A stretch of DNA of 7,168 bases from a virus (Duplodnaviria > Heunggongvirae > Uroviricota > Caudoviricetes): IMG/VR virus record IMGVR_UViG_2541047698_000013. One strand, given 5' to 3'. The notes below the pieces were generated by a model. That model saw only the letters and a program-made list of their open reading frames with translations, was not told the DNA's origin and made no database searches. This document shows, in pieces, positions 1-7,168 of the stretch. Every line of letters starts with the position of its first letter. Within the stretch, counting starts at the first letter, position 1. A program made the translations under genes and the position numbers.

Positions 1-801
1 ATGCCACTGCTGGATAAGCTGCGTGAGCAGTACGGGGTCGGACCGCTATGCAGCGAACTGCATATTGCCCCGTCAACGTATTACCACTGTCAGCAACAGC
101 GACATCATCCGGATAAACGCAGTGCCCGTGCGCAGCGCGATGACTGGCTGAAGAAAGAGATACAGCGCGTATACGATGAAAATCACAAGGTATACGGTGT
201 GCGTAAAGTCTGGCGTCAGTTGTTACGGGAAGGTATCAGAGTGGCCAGATGCACTGTGGCACGTCTCATGGCGGTTATGGGACTTGCCGGTGTTCTCCGG
301 GGTAAAAAGGTCCGTACGACCATCAGCCGGAAAGCCGTTGCCGCAGGCGACCGCGTAAACCGTCAGTTCGTGGCAGAACGACCTGACCAGCTGTGGGTGG
401 CTGATTTTACTTACGTCAGCACATGGCGGGGCTTCGTCTATGTGGCGTTCATCATTGATGTGTTTGCCGGATACATCGTGGGGTGGCGGGTCTCATCGTC
501 CATGGAAACGACATTCGTGCTGGATGCACTGGAGCAGGCGTTATGGGCCCGTCGACCGTCCGGCACGGTCCATCACAGTGATAAAGGTTCTCAGTATGTA
601 TCGCTGGCCTACACACAGCGGCTTAAGGAAGCCGGATTACTGGCATCAACAGGAAGTACAGGCGACTCGTATGACAACGCGATGGCTGAGAGCATCAATG
701 GTCTTTACAAAGCGGAGGTAATACACCGTAAGAGCTGGAAAAACCGTGCAGAAGTGGAACTGGCCACACTCACGTGGGTGGACTGGTATAACAATCGATG
801 A
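1..801 (+). CDS. IS629-like transposase OrfB (DDE, integrase-type catalytic domain); ends at an in-frame TGA (799-801), with family-conserved C-terminal sequence continuing in the same frame to the next stop at 886-888
   Basis: 266-aa ORF from the track. DDE motif spacing is typical of the IS3 family. The ATG at 1 is probably not the natural initiation site, because IS3-family OrfB is normally made as an OrfAB fusion by -1 frameshifting from an upstream orfA that is outside the window. Confidence 0.88.
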   Translation: MPLLDKLREQYGVGPLCSELHIAPSTYYHCQQQRHHPDKRSARAQRDDWLKKEIQRVYDENHKVYGVRKVWRQLLREGIRVARCTVARLMAVMGLAGVLRGKKVRTTISRKAVAAGDRVNRQFVAERPDQLWVADFTYVSTWRGFVYVAFIIDVFAGYIVGWRVSSSMETTFVLDALEQALWARRPSGTVHHSDKGSQYVSLAYTQRLKEAGLLASTGSTGDSYDNAMAESINGLYKAEVIHRKSWKNRAEVELATLTWVDWYNNR

Positions 802-905
802 TTGCTGGGAAGGCTGGGCCATACTCCTCCGGCAGAAGCAGAAAAAGCTTATTATGCTTCCATCGGAAACGATGATCTGGCAGCCTGAGTTCACAGATAA
901 AACAC

Positions 906-930
906 TCTCCAGGAAACCCGGGGCGGTTCA
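906..930 (+). repeat. Right terminal inverted repeat of the IS element (inner boundary approximate)
   Basis: Terminal sequence ...CTCTCCAGGAAACCCGGGGCGGTTCA ends the element at 930. The left end is not in the window, so the IR length cannot be confirmed by self-complementarity. Confidence 0.5.
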
Positions 931-3720
931 GCGCTAAGAAATCTTGAACAACAGCAGGATGAACTTAATGCTGCGTTTGCATCCGGGAAAATAAATGGTT
1001 CTCAGTTTGAGAATTATAGCCGAAAAATACAGGAAACACGGCGAGAGCTTACCGGAGAGGCTCAGGCAGAGCGAGAAGCAGCAAAAGCGCATGATGAACA
1101 GGTTGCTGCTTTGCAACGTCTGATTGCTCAACTTGACCCTGTCGGAACTGCTTTTAATCGTCTGGTAGAACAACAGAAACAGCTCAATGAAGCAAAAGCT
1201 AAGGGGATGCTCTCTCCTGAAATGTATGAGGAACTTTCTGGAAAACTTCGTGCTATGCGGAGTGAGCTTGAGGTTACTCAATCTCAATTAAGCAAAACCG
1301 GAATGTCGGCAAAACAAACGGCTTTTGCTATGCGCATGTTGCCTGCACAAATGACGGATATTGTTGTTGGGTTGTCCACTGGTCAGTCGCCTTTTATGGT
1401 GTTAATGCAGCAGGGCGGCCAGCTAAAAGATATGTTCGGTGGGATTGGCCCGGCGATCAAAGGTGTTGGTTCTTATGTGCTGGGATTAATTAATCCTTTT
1501 ACCCTGGCCGCAGCAGCCGTTGGCGTCTTAGGGCTGGCTTACTATAAAGGCTCTCAGGAGCAGGACGAATTTAATAAGTCTCTTATTCTTACCGGAAATC
1601 AGTTGGGGACAACCAGCGGGCAATTGGCCGATATAGTTCAACGTGCCGGGAATGCGGCTGATTCGACAACTGGCGCTGCGGCGGCAGTATTAAACCAGCT
1701 TGTGCGTTCGGGAAAGGTAGCGAGCAGTTCGCTGGAGCAAGTGACGACAGCGATAGTAAAAACGAGCGAAGTAACAGGAATATCAACCGAACAACTGGTT
1801 AATGACTTCAATGAAATTGCAAAGGATCCTGTCAGTGCCATATCAAAACTTAATGATCAGTACCATTTTCTGACAATTGCGACTTATAACCAGATTAAGG
1901 CGCTACAGGATGAAGGGAACCAGCAGGAGGCCGCCCGCATTGCGACAGAAGCATACTCATCCTCAATGATCCAGCGCACCAACCAGATTAAAGAAAATCT
2001 TGGTTATCTTGAGACTGCATGGAAAGCTGTCGCAGACTCCGCAAAATGGGCATGGGATTCCATGCTGGATATTGGCCGTGAGGCCTCCCTTGATCAAAAA
2101 ATCTCAGATGTTCTCCGTCAAATTGATGAAATAGAAAAAAATACCCGACCCGGAGTTTTCGGGTTAGGTGGCATTGGAGATGGCGGAGCTCAAAATAAAA
2201 GGCTGGCACGATTAAAGCAGCAATTGGGCGTACTTCAAGCAGAAAAAATTGCTCAGGACGTACTAAATTCATCAATAAACGATTACAACAAGCGACAACA
2301 GGAAGGAATTGAACTCAGACAGAGAGCAGATGCCTTTTCAAAACAATATCAGACCCGGGAGCAGCAGAGAGCTAGTGAACTTGCAAAACTGGAAAAACTA
2401 AAGAGTCAGTATTCAAAGGAAGAATATAATAATCTTATCGCTCAAATAAATGAGCGTTATAAAGATCCAAAGCAACCAAAGGCGAAAGGTTATTCGGATG
2501 ATGCTGCCCAACGAATGATTGATCATCTGAATCAACAGAATGCGTTACTAAGTTCACAAACTGAATTAACCGTTAAATTAAGTTCCTCTGAACAGGAACT
2601 GGTTAAGTGGCGTCAGCAGATTGCCGACCTGGAGTCACGACCGTCATCGAAATTAACCAAGGATCAGAAATCGCTTCTCTTACACCGGGAAGAAATAACC
2701 GCGTTGATGGAGAAAAATGTTGCGATTGAAAAAAATAACAGGCTAATCAAGGAATCCGCCGAAATAGCTGCATGGCGTGATTCATTGCAGGCTTCGATTG
2801 ATAATCGTCAACAGGGGTATGATATTCAGATTGCTGGTTATGGGGTTGGCGATAAAAATCAGCAACGCCAGCAGGAATTACTGCGGATTGAACGTGAATA
2901 TAACAATCAGCGTCTGCAACTTGAACGTGACTATGCAGATAAATCCCGTGGGATGTCAAATCATGTTTTTCAGGAGAAAATGCAGGCTCTGAATGATGCT
3001 CTGGAACGAGAAAAAGAAATTGTCAGACAGAAAAACGAGCAGCTCGATATTCAGGCAGGAGACTGGGTTAGTGGTGCCTCCCAGGGATTCAATAACTGGC
3101 TGGATGACACTAAGGATATCAGTGAGCAGATAAAATCAACCACGACTCAGATGTTTGATGGAATGACCGATGCGCTGGGTGATTTTGTCACGACAGGCAA
3201 AGCAAATTTTCGTTCTTTCGCTACTTCCGTGATTTCGGATCTTAGTCGAATAGCATTAAAGGCTTCAATTACTGGGATTTTCGACAGCATTAGTAACAGT
3301 TCTTCTGGGGGGATTTTAGGAACTATCGGGAGTGCTATTAGTAAATTTATTCCGAATGCAAAGGGCGGTGTTTATGAGTCTCCGTCATTGAACACGTATT
3401 CGAACGGTATTTATGATTCCCCGCAATTTTTTGCTTTTGCAAGAGGGGCTGGTGTTTTTGGTGAGGCTGGTCCGGAAGCCATTATGCCATTAACACGAAC
3501 TTCCGATGGTTCTCTTGGTGTCAGAGCTGTTAATAGTAAAAGTGGTAATGGAGGCGGAGATATTACCTATGCCCCTGTATACCAAATCACTATTCAAAAT
3601 GACGGCCAGAATGGAGAGATTGGCCCTCAGGCAATAAAAGCACTTATGGGGATGGTTGATCAGCGGGTGCAGGGCAATCTGTTAAATATGCGACGTGATG
3701 GGGGAATGTTAAGTGGCTAA
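931..3720 (+). CDS. H: Tail length tape measure protein (lambda gpH-like), C-terminal portion; 5' end apparently severed by the IS insertion (probable pseudogene)
   Basis: Frame 1 is open from the IS junction to the TAA at 3718-3720, with no ATG/GTG/TTG before the TTG at 1111 (first ATG at 1207); frames 2 and 3 have stops at 935 and 945. The translation carries the conserved tape-measure motif [41 protein letters not shown] (lambda H: [13 protein letters not shown]...QSPWLILLQQGGQVKDSFGG) and a lambda-H-like C-terminus (...[16 protein letters not shown]...[10 protein letters not shown]). The central region is long, charged and Q/E/K/R-rich, typical of tape measure proteins. Confidence 0.9.
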
Positions 3721-4051
3721 TACGGAAGAATTTCACTGGTTACCAGAGGATGGAATGAAAACAGAAAATAAACCATCGATAAAAACTGTAAGATTTGGCG
3801 ATGGTTATGAGCAACGAAGTCCAAATGGACTTAATCATTCTCTGCGCGTTTTCACCTGTGATTTCAAAGTTGAGGCGAATGAACGTGATTCATTTGAAAA
3901 ATTTTTAGCCCGGCATGAAGGCTATAAATCTTTTTTTTGGCGCCCGCCGGGTATTAACAGAAAAATCAGAGTGGTGTGTCGAACGTGGTCAGCGACAGAA
4001 CATATCACCTATACCGATTTTTCGTGTCAGTTTGACGAAGTGGTGATCTGA
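3713..4051 (+). CDS. M: Minor tail protein M (lambda gpM-like)
   Basis: 112-aa ORF with ...[16 protein letters not shown]...[16 protein letters not shown]...FDEVVI, matching lambda M (...VRFGDGYSQRAPAGLN...FLEEHGGWKSFLWTPP...FEQVVN). The GTG start at 3713 overlaps the H stop (GTGGCTAA). An alternative ATG at 3755, preceded by GAGGA, would give MKTENKP..., which resembles the lambda M N-terminus MKTFRWK. Confidence 0.85.
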
Positions 4052-4749
4052 TGCAGGACATACAACAGGAAACGCTGAATGAATGCATTCGTGCGGAGCA
4101 GTCGGCCAGCGTGGTGCTCTGGGAAATCGACCTGACAGAGGTAGGCGGGGATCGCTACTTTTTCTGTAATGAGCAGAACGAAAAAGGTGAGTCTGTCACC
4201 TGGCAGAGTCGGCAGTATCAGGCCTATCCCATTCAGGGGAGTGGATTTGAGATGAACGGCAAGGGCAGTGCTGCCCGTCCGACACTGGCGGTCTCTAACC
4301 TGCACGGCATGATCACCGGGATGGCGGAAGATCTGCAGAGTCTGGTCGGCGGAACGGTGGTCCGGCGTAAGGTTTACGCCCGCTTTCTGGATGCGGTGAA
4401 CTTCGTCAACGGAAACAGCGAAGCCGATCCGGAGCAGGAGGTGATCAGCCGCTGGCGCATCGAGCAGTGCAGCGAACTGAGCGCGGTCAGTGCCTCTTTT
4501 GTACTGTCCACGCCGACTGAAACGGATGGCGCTGTTTTTCCGGGACGTATCATGCTGGCCAACACCTGCACCTGGACCTATCGCGGCGATGAGTGCGGTT
4601 ATAGCGGTCCGGCGGTCGCGGATGAATATGACCAGCCGACGTCCGATATCACGAAGGATAAATGCAGCAAATGCCTGAGTGGCTGTAAGTTTCGCAATAA
4701 TGTCGGCAACTTTGGCAGCTTCCTTTCCATTAACAAACTTTCGCAGTAA
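4051..4749 (+). CDS. L: Minor tail protein L (lambda gpL-like; tail tip assembly)
   Basis: 232-aa ORF, near-identical over its length to lambda L as I recall it (MQDI.QETLNEC.RAEQSASVVLWEIDLTEVGG.RYFFCNEQNEKGE... ending KCSKCLSGCKFRNNVGNFG.FLSINKLSQ), including the C-terminal Cys cluster. Its ATG overlaps the M stop (TGATG). Confidence 0.95.
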   Translation: MQDIQQETLNECIRAEQSASVVLWEIDLTEVGGDRYFFCNEQNEKGESVTWQSRQYQAYPIQGSGFEMNGKGSAARPTLAVSNLHGMITGMAEDLQSLVGGTVVRRKVYARFLDAVNFVNGNSEADPEQEVISRWRIEQCSELSAVSASFVLSTPTETDGAVFPGRIMLANTCTWTYRGDECGYSGPAVADEYDQPTSDITKDKCSKCLSGCKFRNNVGNFGSFLSINKLSQ

Positions 4750-4754
4750 ATCCC

Positions 4755-5498
4755 ATGACAGAGACAGAATCAGCGATTCTGGCGCACGCCCGGCGATGTG
4801 CGCCAGCGGAGTCGTGCGGCTTCGTGGTGAGAACGCCGGAGGAGGAAAGATATTTTCCCTGCGTGAATATCTCCGGTGAGCCGGAGGAGTATTTCCGGAT
4901 GTCGCCGGAGGACTGGCTGAGTGCAGAAATGCAGGGAGAGATTGTGGCGCTGGTCCACAGCCACCCCGGTGGTCTGCCCTGGCTGAGTGAGGCCGACCGG
5001 CGGCTGCAGGTACAGAGTGATTTGCCGTGGTGGCTGGTCTGCCGGGGGGCGATTCATAAATTCCGCTGTGTGCCGCATCTCACCGGGCGGCGCTTTGAGC
5101 ACGGGGTAACGGACTGTTACACGCTGTTCCGGGACGCTTACCATCTGGCGGGAATTGAGATGCCGGATTTTCATCGCGGGGATGACTGGTGGCGTAACGG
5201 TCAGAATCTCTATCTGGATAATCTGGAGGCCACAGGGCTGTATCAGGTGCCGTTGTCAGCGGCGCAGCCGGGCGATGTGCTGCTGTGCTGTTTTGGTTCA
5301 TCGGTGCCGAATCATGCCGCCATTTACTGTGGTGACAGCGAGCTGCTGCACCATATTCCTGAACAACTGAGCAAACGAGAGAGGTACACCGACAAATGGC
5401 AGCGACGCACACACTCCCTCTGGCGTCACCGGGCATGGCACGCATCTGCCTTTACGGGGATTTACAACGATTTGGCCGCCGCATCGACCTTCGAGTGA
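4755..5498 (+). CDS. K: Tail assembly protein K (lambda gpK-like), with an N-terminal JAB/MPN-type metalloprotease motif and a C-terminal NlpC/P60-type Cys/His peptidase region
   Basis: 247-aa ORF. It contains the JAMM signature H-x-H-x7-S-x2-D (HSHPGGLPWLSEAD, nt 4956-4997) with a conserved upstream Glu (AESCGF), and a downstream Cys (VTDCYTLF, codon at 5115-5117) plus His residues (PNHAAIY, LLHH) consistent with NlpC/P60. It starts 5 nt after the L stop. Confidence 0.9.
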   Translation: MTETESAILAHARRCAPAESCGFVVRTPEEERYFPCVNISGEPEEYFRMSPEDWLSAEMQGEIVALVHSHPGGLPWLSEADRRLQVQSDLPWWLVCRGAIHKFRCVPHLTGRRFEHGVTDCYTLFRDAYHLAGIEMPDFHRGDDWWRNGQNLYLDNLEATGLYQVPLSAAQPGDVLLCCFGSSVPNHAAIYCGDSELLHHIPEQLSKRERYTDKWQRRTHSLWRHRAWHASAFTGIYNDLAAASTFE

Positions 5499-6037
5499 AA
5501 ACGGGGTCCGAAGCCATCCGGGCGCTGGCCATGCAGATCCCGGCATTTCGTCAGAAACTGAGCGACGGCTGGTACCAGGTACGCATTGCCGGGCGTGATG
5601 CAGGTGAAACCGAATTGTCTGCCCGTCTTAATGAGCCGCTGGAAAATGGTGCCGTGATCCATATCGTGCCGCGTCTGGCAGGAGCCAAAAGTGGCGGTGT
5701 GTTTCAGGCTGTGCTGGGGGCGGCTGTTATGGCGGTTGCTATATGGATGCCGGGGGTAGGAATTATGGCGAGTAATCTGCTGTTTTCTCTCGGTGCCAGT
5801 ATGACGCTTGGCGGTGTTGCACAGATGCTGGCCCCTAAACCCAAAACCCCCCGCACACAGACAACGGATAACGGCAAACAGAACACCTATTTTTCTTCAC
5901 TGGATAACATGGTTGCCCAGGGCAATGTTCTGCCGGTTCTGTACGGTGAAATGCGCGTGGGGTCACGCGTGGTTTCTCAGGAGATCAGCACGGCAGACGA
6001 AGGGGATGGTGGTCAGGTTGTGGTGATTGGTCGCTGA
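5396..6037 (+). CDS. I: Tail assembly protein I (lambda gpI-like)
   Basis: 213-aa ORF. The N-terminus MAATHTLPLASPGMARICLYGDLQRFGRRIDLRVKTG and the C-terminus ...TPRTQTTDNGKQNTYFSSLDNMVAQGNVLPVLYGEMRVGSRVVSQEISTADEGDGGQVVVIGR match lambda I as recalled. It overlaps the 3' end of K by 103 nt in a different frame, as in lambda. Confidence 0.9.
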   Translation: MAATHTLPLASPGMARICLYGDLQRFGRRIDLRVKTGSEAIRALAMQIPAFRQKLSDGWYQVRIAGRDAGETELSARLNEPLENGAVIHIVPRLAGAKSGGVFQAVLGAAVMAVAIWMPGVGIMASNLLFSLGASMTLGGVAQMLAPKPKTPRTQTTDNGKQNTYFSSLDNMVAQGNVLPVLYGEMRVGSRVVSQEISTADEGDGGQVVVIGR

Positions 6038-6055
6038 TGCAAAATGTTTTATGTG

Positions 6056-6085
6056 AAACCGCCTCCGGGCGGTTTTATCGTTTAT
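6056..6085 (+). terminator. Candidate stem-loop / weak intrinsic terminator-like structure in the I-J intergenic region
   Basis: AAACCGCC (6056-6063), loop TCCG, GGCGGTTT (6068-6075) form a perfect 8-bp stem, followed by a T-rich but interrupted tract TTATCGTTTAT. It lies in the only sizeable intergenic gap of the operon (6038-6097). Confidence 0.25.
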
Positions 6086-6097
6086 GGAGCATGACGA

Positions 6098-7168
6098 ATG
6101 GGTAAAGGCAGCAGTAAGGGGCATACCCCGCGCGAAGCGAAGGACAACCTGAAGTCCACGCAGCTGCTGAGTGTGATCGATGCCATCAGCGAAGGGCCGG
6201 TTGAAGGTCCGGTGGATGGATTAAAAAGCGTGCTGCTGAACAGTACGCCGGTGCTGGACAGTGAGGGGAATACCAATATATCCGGCGTCACGGTGGTGTT
6301 CCGGGCCGGTGAGCAGGAGCAGACACCGCCGGAGGGATTTGAATCCTCCGGCTCCGAGACGGTGCTGGGTACGGAAGTGAAGTACGACACGCCGATTACC
6401 CGGACCATCACGTCGGCAAACATCGACCGTCTGCGCTTTACCTTCGGTGTGCAGGCACTGGTGGAAACCACCTCAAAGGGGGACCGGAATCCGTCGGAAG
6501 TCCGCCTGCTGGTTCAGATACAGCGTAATGGTGGCTGGGTGACGGAAAAAGACATCACCATTAAAGGCAAAACCACCTCACAGTATCTGGCCTCGGTGGT
6601 GGTGGGTGACCTGCCGCCGCGTCCGTTCAATATCCGGATGCGCAGGATGACGCCGGACAGCACCACAGACCAGCTGCAGAACAAAACGCTCTGGTCGTCA
6701 TACACCGAAATCATCGATGTGAAACAGTGCTACCCGAACACGGCACTGGTCGGCGTACAGGTGGATTCGGAGCAGTTCGGCAGCCAGCAGGTGAGCCGTA
6801 ATTATCATCTGCGCGGGCGTATTCTGCAGGTGCCGTCGAACTATAACCCGCAGACTCGGCAATACAGCGGTATCTGGGACGGAACGTTTAAGCCAGCATA
6901 CAGCAATAACATGGCCTGGTGTCTGTGGGATATGCTGACCCATCCACGCTACGGCATGGGGAAACGTCTTGGTGCGGCGGATGTGGACAAATGGGCGCTG
7001 TATGTCATCGGCCAGTACTGCGACCAGTCAGTGCCGGACGGCTTTGGCGGCACGGAGCCGCGCATCACCTGTAATGCGTACCTGACCACACAGCGCAAGG
7101 CGTGGGATGTGCTCAGTGATTTCTGCTCGGCGATGCGCTGTATGCCGGTATGGAACGGGCAGACGCTG
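6098..7168 (+). CDS. J: Host specificity protein J / tail tip (central fibre) protein, N-terminal 357 codons; continues beyond the window
   Basis: ATG at 6098 is preceded by GGAG with 8-nt spacing. The translation MGKGSSKGHTPREAKDNLKSTQLLSVIDAISEGP... matches the lambda J N-terminus essentially residue for residue. The frame stays open to the window end, which is why the ORF track does not list it. Confidence 0.95.
   Translation, partial: MGKGSSKGHTPREAKDNLKSTQLLSVIDAISEGPVEGPVDGLKSVLLNSTPVLDSEGNTNISGVTVVFRAGEQEQTPPEGFESSGSETVLGTEVKYDTPITRTITSANIDRLRFTFGVQALVETTSKGDRNPSEVRLLVQIQRNGGWVTEKDITIKGKTTSQYLASVVVGDLPPRPFNIRMRRMTPDSTTDQLQNKTLWSSYTEIIDVKQCYPNTALVGVQVDSEQFGSQQVSRNYHLRGRILQVPSNYNPQTRQYSGIWDGTFKPAYSNNMAWCLWDMLTHPRYGMGKRLGAADVDKWALYVIGQYCDQSVPDGFGGTEPRITCNAYLTTQRKAWDVLSDFCSAMRCMPVWNGQTL

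Follow-up and report, generated by a model that had tools for sequence, protein, structure and literature searches.

The stretch of DNA analysed here (the window, 7168 nt in full length) represents the tail operon carried by an E. coli lambdoid prophage of the Rac family, and its genes and other features are listed in Table 1. The tape-measure gene H has lost its 5' end to an IS insertion; in IS-free relatives, to which matches begin at position 931, the intact gene is 3234 nt long and every ORF is intact. M, the final gene of the low-GC left module, has a GTG start and a TGA stop at 4049–4051, and its product matches lambda gpM in the lambda tail-tip structures 8IYK and 8IYL. The M stop overlaps the start codon of L (4051–4053), for which the preliminary description of the sequence had given the right coordinates. 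Downstream, L, K, I and J follow one another in the order, and with the Pfam family domains, of a lambda-type tail-tip cassette, J extending past the window end. All reading frames are kept across the joint analysed below, and so is the M/L translational overlap.

Table 1. Genes and features of the window around the M/L border
Feature	Position	Strand	Content or evidence
H, tape-measure gene	931..3720	+	Pfam TMP_2, TMP_4, Tape_meas_lam_C
M, distal tail protein	3713..4051	+	Pfam Phage_min_tail, 1.2e-31
Start of DNA similarity to lambda-family prophages, last M codons	4029..4047	+	blastn to lambda
Conserved island 1	4048..4073	+	M stop/L start overlap and L codons 1–8 (MQDIQQET)
L, tail-tip hub protein	4051..4749	+	Pfam Phage_tail_L, 1.5e-97
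Interval of the older joint	4063..4079	+	left, window follows H/M-lineage relatives; right, lambda-type L
Interval of the recent crossover	4090..4142	+	53 nt identical in window, PhiR49_1 and lambda
Conserved island 2	4111..4142	+	L codons 21–31 (VVLWEIDLTEV)
K, JAB/MPN and NlpC/P60 domains	4755..5498	+	Pfam Prok-JAB, NLPC_P60
I, lambda family	5435..6037	+	Pfam Lambda_tail_I
J, 5' part, central tail fibre/tip attachment protein	6098..7168	+	Pfam FNIII-A_GpJ

The G+C content is 44.3% over 931–4089 and 57.6% over 4090–7168. Gene by gene, it is 44.8% for H and 41.0% for M, as against 55.8% for L, 59.3% for K, 56.4% for I and 58.3% for J, and the step is also present at third codon positions (GC3 is 38.5% in H and 34.5% in M, but 67.0% in L, 67.3% in K, 56.7% in I and 72.8% in J). 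Among non-overlapping windows of 60 nt, the 52 to the left of the step had a median G+C of 43.3% and the 51 to its right one of 58.3% (Mann–Whitney p=1.4e-13). When a single break was fitted over 931–7168, the maximum-likelihood change point fell at 4090 (2-log-unit support interval 4034–4105) with an LLR of 55.3, whereas 200 block shuffles, used as the null, averaged 3.6 and never exceeded 10.1. Thus the properly computed profile is stepped and not uniform, as had been proposed from 60-nt stretches counted by eye, and those counts proved accurate for both the AT-rich samples (28.3% G+C at 2401–2460 and 36.7% at 3781–3840) and the G+C-rich ones (60% at 4081–4140 and at 4801–4860, and 66.7% at 6601–6660). 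The G+C gap between M and L was at most 9 points in 25 other loci, compared with 41% versus 56% in the window. Relative to the E. coli average, H and M of the window are richer in A+T.

The step in composition and GC3 coincides with a step in similarity to lambda. With blastn (word size 7, E≤1e-3) the sole part of the window that aligned to lambda was 4029–7168, at 91.4% identity, and no H or M DNA matched lambda at these settings. At the protein level, identity to lambda was 28% for H, 42% for M, 93% for L, 97% for K and 78% for I, and 98.9% for residues 1–357 of J. The preliminary description was therefore correct in calling H and M distantly similar; its account of L, K, I and J as near-identical to lambda holds for K and J, is slightly generous for L and does not apply to I, in the centre of which lies a divergent patch where DNA identity falls to 50–60% (5613–5812). 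L is of lambda type from about codon 6–10 on. In an IS-free relative, lambda-like DNA extends to window-equivalent position 8594, inside J and ~1 kb before the J stop; the lambda-type cassette consists of L, K and I plus the ~830 codons that encode the N-terminal part of J.

To place these values on a scale, species whose M protein is at most 44% identical to that of the window were used, for calibration only. In Providencia and Pantoea loci, where M and L have similar G+C, identity rose from 28–29% for H and 38–43% for M to 52–55% for L, 51–56% for K and 61% for J. Lambda, in contrast, combines 42% for M with 93% for L, 97% for K and 99% for J. The divergence step at the M/L border exceeds the differences in rate between the genes.

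The joint had been placed at or near the M stop/L start overlap, and this proved not to be its position: it lies 15–90 nt inside L, in 4063–4142. Position 4029, where most matches to E. coli prophages start, was also considered and is ruled out as the joint, since relatives of the H/M lineage have 4029–4072 in common with the window. Two such relatives, the Citrobacter contig L039 and the metagenome contig L040, share 4029–4047 and are nearer to the window there than lambda is. Read off the alignment, the window differs over 4029–4072 at ~3 sites from L039 and at 8 from lambda; over 4073–4142 only three differences from lambda are found (4074, 4088 and 4089), and identity to L039 drops to 65–68%. 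Comparison with the phage PhiR49_1 gave a second boundary. The window and PhiR49_1 are ~45% identical in M and differ at 11 sites in 4029–4089, but at none of the 3079 nt of 4090–7168, and PhiR49_1 itself matches lambda without a difference over 3930–4142, diverging from 4143 onward. The recent crossover thus lies in register within a 53-nt perfect match, as in homologous exchange, and the left edge of this match is also the G+C change point. These alignments point to at least two superimposed events, an older switch at ~4063–4079 and a very recent crossover in 4090–4142. Mosaic patches are also present throughout L–J.

Each flank of the joint was found with other partners. The right flank occurs in PhiR49_1 next to H and M of lambda type; in lambda, PhiR49_2 and mEp460, cassettes of the right-flank type stand beside a different M type in each case. 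The left flank is followed in Ec_30602 by an mEp460-type L from 4074, the change from window type to mEp460 type falling between 4062 and 4074 (an interval of ~11 nt, 4063–4073), and the same M stands beside other L alleles in AH50, NCTC9082 and E. ruysiae, with switch points within 4063–4166. All of these switch points are in register, without indels, and in sequence common to both parents. A large protein search gave the intermediates P0003 (83%) and P0005 (75%), whose contigs are L040 and L039. L040, whose H and M proteins are 85% and 83% identical to those of the window, keeps a low-GC L (G+C 44%, GC3 38%, 78% amino acid identity) and has a weaker G+C step of its own near the L/K boundary (LLR 15.9). 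L040 (~80% DNA identity) and L039 serve only as proxies for the 'native' state of the H/M lineage; a parent combining exactly the H and M of the window with the original L was not found.

The M–L junction was detected with a junction probe in 716 of the 5426 complete E. coli genomes, the module formed by the H C-terminus and M being present in 712, and M was essentially always beside a lambda-family L. Identity over the junction ranged from 89% to 99.8% among the sampled matches. The same junction is found in Shigella flexneri, in E. ruysiae and in ten phage or prophage records, and a blastn search of the phage collection returned no H/M module with a different L (10 of the 10 module-bearing records share the junction). 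The remaining matches in that collection were to part of the tape measure, from Klebsiella prophages (~70% over 931–1956) and Stx phages (~68% over 3430–3718). A scan for the M protein in one genome per species revealed two close relatives (S. flexneri and E. ruysiae), all others being at most 44% identical. The vB_EcoS records that match the junction apparently originate in a prophage survey of clinical isolates. A literature search returned no paper on PhiR49_1 and none describing this particular M/L joint.

Taken together, the similarity step far beyond what differential constraint produces, the occurrence of either flank with other partners and the H/M-lineage relative with a low-GC L argue that the cassette has recombined on to a foreign H and M. 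Thus the mosaic joint put forward in the preliminary description, between a lambda-type tail-tip cassette and a tape measure and M of other ancestry, is upheld, and we conclude, with a probability of roughly 0.9, that low-GC, non-lambda H and M and a lambda-type L-to-J cassette were joined by recombination between lambdoid (pro)phages in at least two events. We infer that the lambda-type cassette replaced a 'native' low-GC L-to-J allele, although sequence alone cannot polarise the transfer. Most likely, lambdoid (pro)phages that shared a cell, as residents or on infection, underwent homologous or relaxed-homology recombination, and the left crossover would have fallen in the sole sequence that both parents share there, the two islands at the 5' end of L, which are conserved owing to protein constraint on L. 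The recent exchange left 4090–7168 identical to the cassette of PhiR49_1. The chimeric tail is predicted to be functional; the intact ORFs of IS-free relatives and the presence of the combination in 716 genomes are indirect hints of this, while in the window itself the IS disrupts H.

The pathway may have been that of RecA or of Red/RecET-type annealases. Recombination between lambda and a defective Rac prophage has been measured at ~2e-6 over DNA that is 88% identical and in which no perfect match is longer than 49 bp, and it proceeded mainly via Red-beta, much more than via RecA (De Paepe et al. 2014, PMC3945230). The partners were of the same kinds as those proposed here, and the exchange likewise used short, diverged homology in tail genes (49 bp there, 53 nt here). 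However, stf and tfa were scored in that system and not the M/L border, and the pathway was demonstrated there, whereas we infer it for the window. The older joint and that of Ec_30602 are placed on only ~11–17 nt, which makes their pathway uncertain, and the ~11-nt interval of Ec_30602 is short for RecA-type recombination and also compatible with microhomology-mediated joining.

Random joining followed by selection is a model of phage mosaicism, and the joint could accordingly have arisen by illegitimate (non-homologous or microhomology) joining at an essentially random site, kept since both genes were preserved. The ~11-nt switch interval of Ec_30602 fits such a process, as does the older switch, which lies in a short conserved island with diverged sequence around it; moreover, the Chi octamer GCTGGTGG, which Chi-stimulated RecBCD exchange would call for near the joint, was absent from both strands of the whole window. 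Against it, all the switch points found are in shared sequence and in register, with no indels, the recent crossover falls within 53 nt of perfect identity, and in the lambda x Rac system recombination over diverged homology was measurable while the no-homology control was below detection (PMC3945230). We consider illegitimate joining unlikely.

A different possibility is a dedicated site of exchange, kept by selection, at the 5' end of L, either a DNA 'linker' of the Susskind–Botstein type or a hotspot for cassette swapping. At least five independent switch points lie within ~100 nt (4063–4166), database matches to thousands of prophages have their start at 4029, 4040, 4048 or 4099, and two islands there show conservation among sequences with four unrelated M types. 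In island 1, 22 of the 26 positions were invariant among ten aligned sequences that include these M types, the variable ones being mostly synonymous third positions, and the island 2 motif VxLWEIDLT recurs in L homologues of Providencia, Pantoea, Neisseria and Pseudomonas. The preliminary description advised a check for short conserved linkers at gene boundaries; the conservation of the two islands is at the protein level, because synonymous third positions vary in both (GAC/GAT, ATA/ATC/ATT, ACG/ACA and ATC/ATT). A DNA-level linker with conserved synonymous sites was not borne out in either island in this modest test of ~10 sequences. That the motif is kept in L of distant genera and that mosaic patches run throughout L–J also speak against a dedicated site, and there were no repeats around the junction, where promoter and terminator scans gave nothing above shuffle expectation. 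Furthermore, H and M are without homology to other lambdoid phages; any exchange that takes in all of L therefore has to stop where homology gives out on the left, and clustering of switch points there is expected anyway. A dedicated linker or hotspot is thus improbable. We leave a small chance to the broader idea that tip cassettes are exchanged among otherwise unrelated siphovirus tails preferentially, and perhaps under selection, within the first ~30 codons of L, with the few N-terminal, M-facing residues of L to the left of the exchange point co-inherited with M; if this were true, tip cassettes could be swapped on to different shafts with assembly unbroken.

The step might also reflect no exchange at all, but a single vertically inherited operon in which H and M evolve at a much higher rate than L, K, I and J. 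Tape-measure and M proteins were indeed the least conserved in every comparison, and the Providencia and Pantoea loci show such a gradient. Its normal size, however, is ~10–15 points of amino acid identity, compared with 50 points against lambda, and rate differences explain neither a jump in GC3 from 35% in M to 67% in L over a distance of ~60 nt, nor the absence of any difference from PhiR49_1 next to an M of ~45% identity, nor the occurrence of one M beside several different L alleles. This explanation is very improbable and effectively refuted. An assembly or chimera artefact in the source record has a negligible probability, as nothing was found in its favour and the identical junction recurs in the 716 complete E. 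coli genomes, the two other species and the ten phage or prophage records.

Recombination between lambdoid (pro)phages is thus our reading of the joint, and the phenomenon is already known: it is textbook lambdoid mosaicism and involves no new principle. The same abrupt step from unrelated to near-identical sequence marks the mosaic junctions of lambda, HK97, HK022, N15 and the mEp phages, on which the modular genome hypothesis bears, and these likewise lie in the late operon at or near a gene border, with reading frames kept and structural genes moving as a multi-gene block. The classical accounts of such junctions are reportedly those of Susskind and Botstein from 1978, Highton from 1990 and Juhala et al. 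from 2000. The present joint does not differ from them in kind, but it lies 15–90 nt inside L and not exactly at the border, two superimposed events can be resolved, and the host element is a Rac-family prophage with AT-rich H and M. Adjacent tail genes of lambdoid phages are reported to be co-transferred as modules (PMC9836094). Host-range swaps of the receptor-binding C-terminus of J concern the other edge of the same cassette (window-equivalent 8594, inside J); they differ in lying outside the window, within a gene at a domain border, and a change in receptor specificity is not expected from the M/L joint.

In lambda, the gpM ring stacks electrostatically, via its E-loops, on the ring formed by gpL HDI and gpJ HDII (PMC10721106). 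An M ring of one lineage stands beside an L/J hub of another in hundreds of genomes, which fits this ring-stacking interface. The locus is a clear example of lambdoid prophages swapping blocks of structural genes, with a crossover placed within 53 nt and a 4.5-kb tail-tip cassette that is common to two phages with unrelated tape-measure and M genes and shows 0 differences over the visible 3.1 kb. The joint may offer a defined natural substrate for recombination studies and, for the typing and annotation of prophages, tail-tip genes do not show to which lineage the other tail genes belong.

DNA searches matched the entire window to E. coli prophage DNA. The prophage of E. coli 23CRST032, an IS-free relative, is flanked by trkG/ynaK/ydaY on one side and by sitABCD, uspF and ompN on the other. 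Because these prophage gene names are those of Rac of E. coli K-12, we assigned it to the Rac-family lambdoid prophages. The head and tail-shaft genes of this relative carry family annotations unlike those of lambda (e.g. a DUF4055 protein and a phage tail tube protein). Matches to all IS-free relatives start at 931, following the terminus of an IS3-family element (...CCCGGGGCGGTTCA, last nucleotide 930) that interrupts the 3234-nt tape-measure gene after 444 nt; the prophage of the window therefore cannot produce an intact tape-measure protein.

Features of the window and of the region around the joint
Feature	Position	Strand	Remarks
End of IS3-family element	1-930		Annotated IS1203-like in matching genomes
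Transposase ORF of the element	1-801		Domains HTH_21, rve, rve_3
H (tape measure)	931-3720	+	Expected Pfam family
M	3713-4051	+	Expected Pfam family; matches lambda gpM, tail-tip structures 8IYK/8IYL
L	4051-4749	+	Expected Pfam family
K	4755-5498	+	Expected Pfam family
I	5435-6037	+	Expected Pfam family
J, 5' part	6098-7168	+	Expected Pfam family
Conserved island 1	4048-4073		M stop/L start overlap and MQDIQQET
Conserved island 2	4111-4142		VVLWEIDLTEV
Lambda K deletion region	4755-4900		Lambda NC_001416 ~14133-14290 (L001 5134-5290)

The preliminary description had contrasted an AT-rich H/M with a GC-rich L/K/I/J, and this held on recomputation. Its by-eye samples were reproduced on the left (28.3% G+C at 2401-2460 and 36.7% at 3781-3840) and on the right (60%, 60% and 66.7%). 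Overall G+C was 44.3% over 931-4089 and 57.6% over 4090-7168, with medians of 43.3% and 58.3% in 60-nt windows (Mann-Whitney p=1.4e-13), and third-position G+C was 38.5% in H and 34.5% in M compared with 67.0%, 67.3%, 56.7% and 72.8% in L, K, I and J. A single change-point model placed the break at 4090 (support 4034-4105), with a log-likelihood gain of 55.3 against at most 10.1 among 200 block shuffles. A lesser step lies inside H at ~1700-1900 (~53% at 1501-1800 to ~42% at 1701-1900), and Klebsiella prophages share ~70% DNA identity with H over 931-1956 only, the TMP_2 domain region; such a pattern may mark another module border within H, or no more than a conserved domain.

Alignment to lambda DNA was confined to 4029-7168 (91.4% identity; blastn, 7-nt word). 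Protein identities to lambda were 28% for H and 42% for M, and 93% for L, 97% for K, 78% for I and 98.9% for J residues 1-357, so that the description of L/K/I/J as near-identical to lambda, with H and M distant, overstated only I. The cassette is itself mosaic relative to lambda in I (5513-5812) and L (4213-4312), with DNA identity falling to 83%, 60% and 50% in mid-I and to 78% in part of L; phage PhiR49_1, which has a lambda-type H and M, is identical to the window throughout these patches. In the window, as in PhiR49_1, PhiR49_2 and mEp460, K is an uninterrupted ORF of 247 codons (JAB and NlpC/P60). Relative to the window, the lambda reference lacks 1 nt in the 5' region of K (GAGG-CTAT against GAGGAGTAT), which may be a genuine lesion of laboratory lambda or an error of early sequencing. 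The initial ~45 codons are thereby shifted out of frame, and the lambda K annotation accordingly starts at an internal Met and covers 199 aa.

A step of this kind could reflect either recombination or uneven evolutionary rates along the tail genes. In Providencia and Pantoea loci, where M and L are alike in G+C, M is 38-43% identical to the window, L 52-55%, K 51-56% and J 61%; in lambda, by contrast, M is 42% identical yet L, K and J reach 93%, 97% and 99%. The M-L G+C gap was at most 9 points in 25 comparison loci, whereas in the window the values are 41% and 56%. Both flanks of the joint also recur with different partners. PhiR49_1 is lambda-type in its Z, U, V, G, T, H and M genes; even so, comparison with the window gives 11 differences over 4029-4089 and none over 4090-7168. 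Window-type M is joined in Ec_30602 to an mEp460-type L from 4074, and other carriers diverge from the window from 4064 (AH50), 4137 (NCTC9082) and 4074/4167 (E. ruysiae) onward. Finally, the H/M lineage has intermediates: a Citrobacter sedlakii prophage (L039; M 75%, L 78% identical) and a metagenome contig (L040; H 85%, M 83%), whose low-GC L (G+C 44%, GC3 38%, 78% aa) illustrates a compositionally uniform H-M-L in this lineage. Taken together, these three sequence-based controls (divergence calibration, alternative partners and H/M-lineage intermediates) argue for the recombination joint that had been proposed. L040 (ENA ERZ27254723 k141_25771) has its own weaker G+C step at ~3943 (43.7% to 51.0%, LLR 15.9), 30 nt beyond its L end and close to the L/K border, which suggests a differently placed cassette boundary in that lineage.

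The joint does not lie at the M stop/L start overlap, as first proposed, but 15-90 nt inside L. Position 4029 was ruled out, as 4029-4072 is common to H/M-lineage relatives and merely starts a conserved stretch. Over 4029-4072 the window shows ~3 differences from L039 and 8 from lambda (read off the alignment); over 4073-4142 it shows 3 from lambda and is 58-68% identical to L039 and L040, a drop from the preceding stretch. Thus an older switch is placed at ~4063-4079, L codons 5-10. A second, very recent event is bounded by 4089, the last window/PhiR49_1 difference, and 4143, where PhiR49_1 ceases to be identical to lambda. In the 53-nt interval between them (4090-4142) all three are identical, and its left edge coincides with the G+C change point.

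Switch points in six M-bearing sequences all fell inside 4063-4166. A dedicated DNA linker at the L 5' end is unlikely, since both islands, although kept across four unrelated M types in an alignment of about 10 sequences, vary at synonymous third positions; this variation and the retention of VVLWEIDLTEV in L proteins as remote as those of Neisseria and Pseudomonas indicate protein-level conservation. H and M lack DNA homology to other lambdoid phages, and exchanges replacing the whole of L must therefore stop where homology begins on the left; this accounts for the clustering with no need for a hotspot. Scanning the joint site revealed no repeats, promoter or convincing terminator, and no Chi site occurs anywhere in the window. 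Within the H/M module, DNA similarity (66-68%) to the tape-measure genes that many E. coli prophages carry, Stx-converting ones included, could be detected only in the last ~290 nt of H (3430-3718); the encoded C-terminal region is located in the tail tip in lambda (PMC10721106).

The best-supported mechanism would be recombination between lambdoid (pro)phages, either homologous or relaxed-homology, although microhomology-mediated joining may conceivably account for the ~11-nt Ec_30602 interval. As a direct precedent, lambda gains Rac prophage DNA via 88%-identical tail-fibre sequence with a longest perfect match of 49 bp, at a rate of ~2e-6 and chiefly through Red-beta, a no-homology control being below detection (PMC3945230). 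Structurally, the gpM hexamer stacks electrostatically via E-loops on the gpL HDI/gpJ HDII domain ring, and the gpI tripod carries the gpH C-terminal coiled coil (PMC10721106). The H C-terminus of the window has a recognisable motif in common with lambda (...NDGxNGxIGPxAxKA...MRDGG), which, with the tail-tip structure, would fit an interface tolerant of partner swapping.

In 23CRST032, lambda-like DNA ends within J at 19664 (window-equivalent 8594), where similarity drops, giving a cassette of ~4.5 kb whose right edge lies ~1 kb before the J stop, in the C-terminal part of J. The genes beyond it, lom and stf-like ones, resemble those of PhiR49_1 and lambda in patches, at 73-90%. The H C-terminus/M module was present in 712 of 5426 complete E. 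coli genomes, a junction-spanning probe matched 716 genomes at at least 80% coverage (89-99.8% identity among sampled matches), and 688 carried the complete 931-7168 arrangement. A literature search found no paper on this particular joint. Neighbouring tail genes are documented to move together as modules (PMC9836094), and lambda x Rac recombination has been measured with the same kinds of partners as here (PMC3945230). The M/L joint adds no new kind of feature and is a standard lambdoid mosaic joint.
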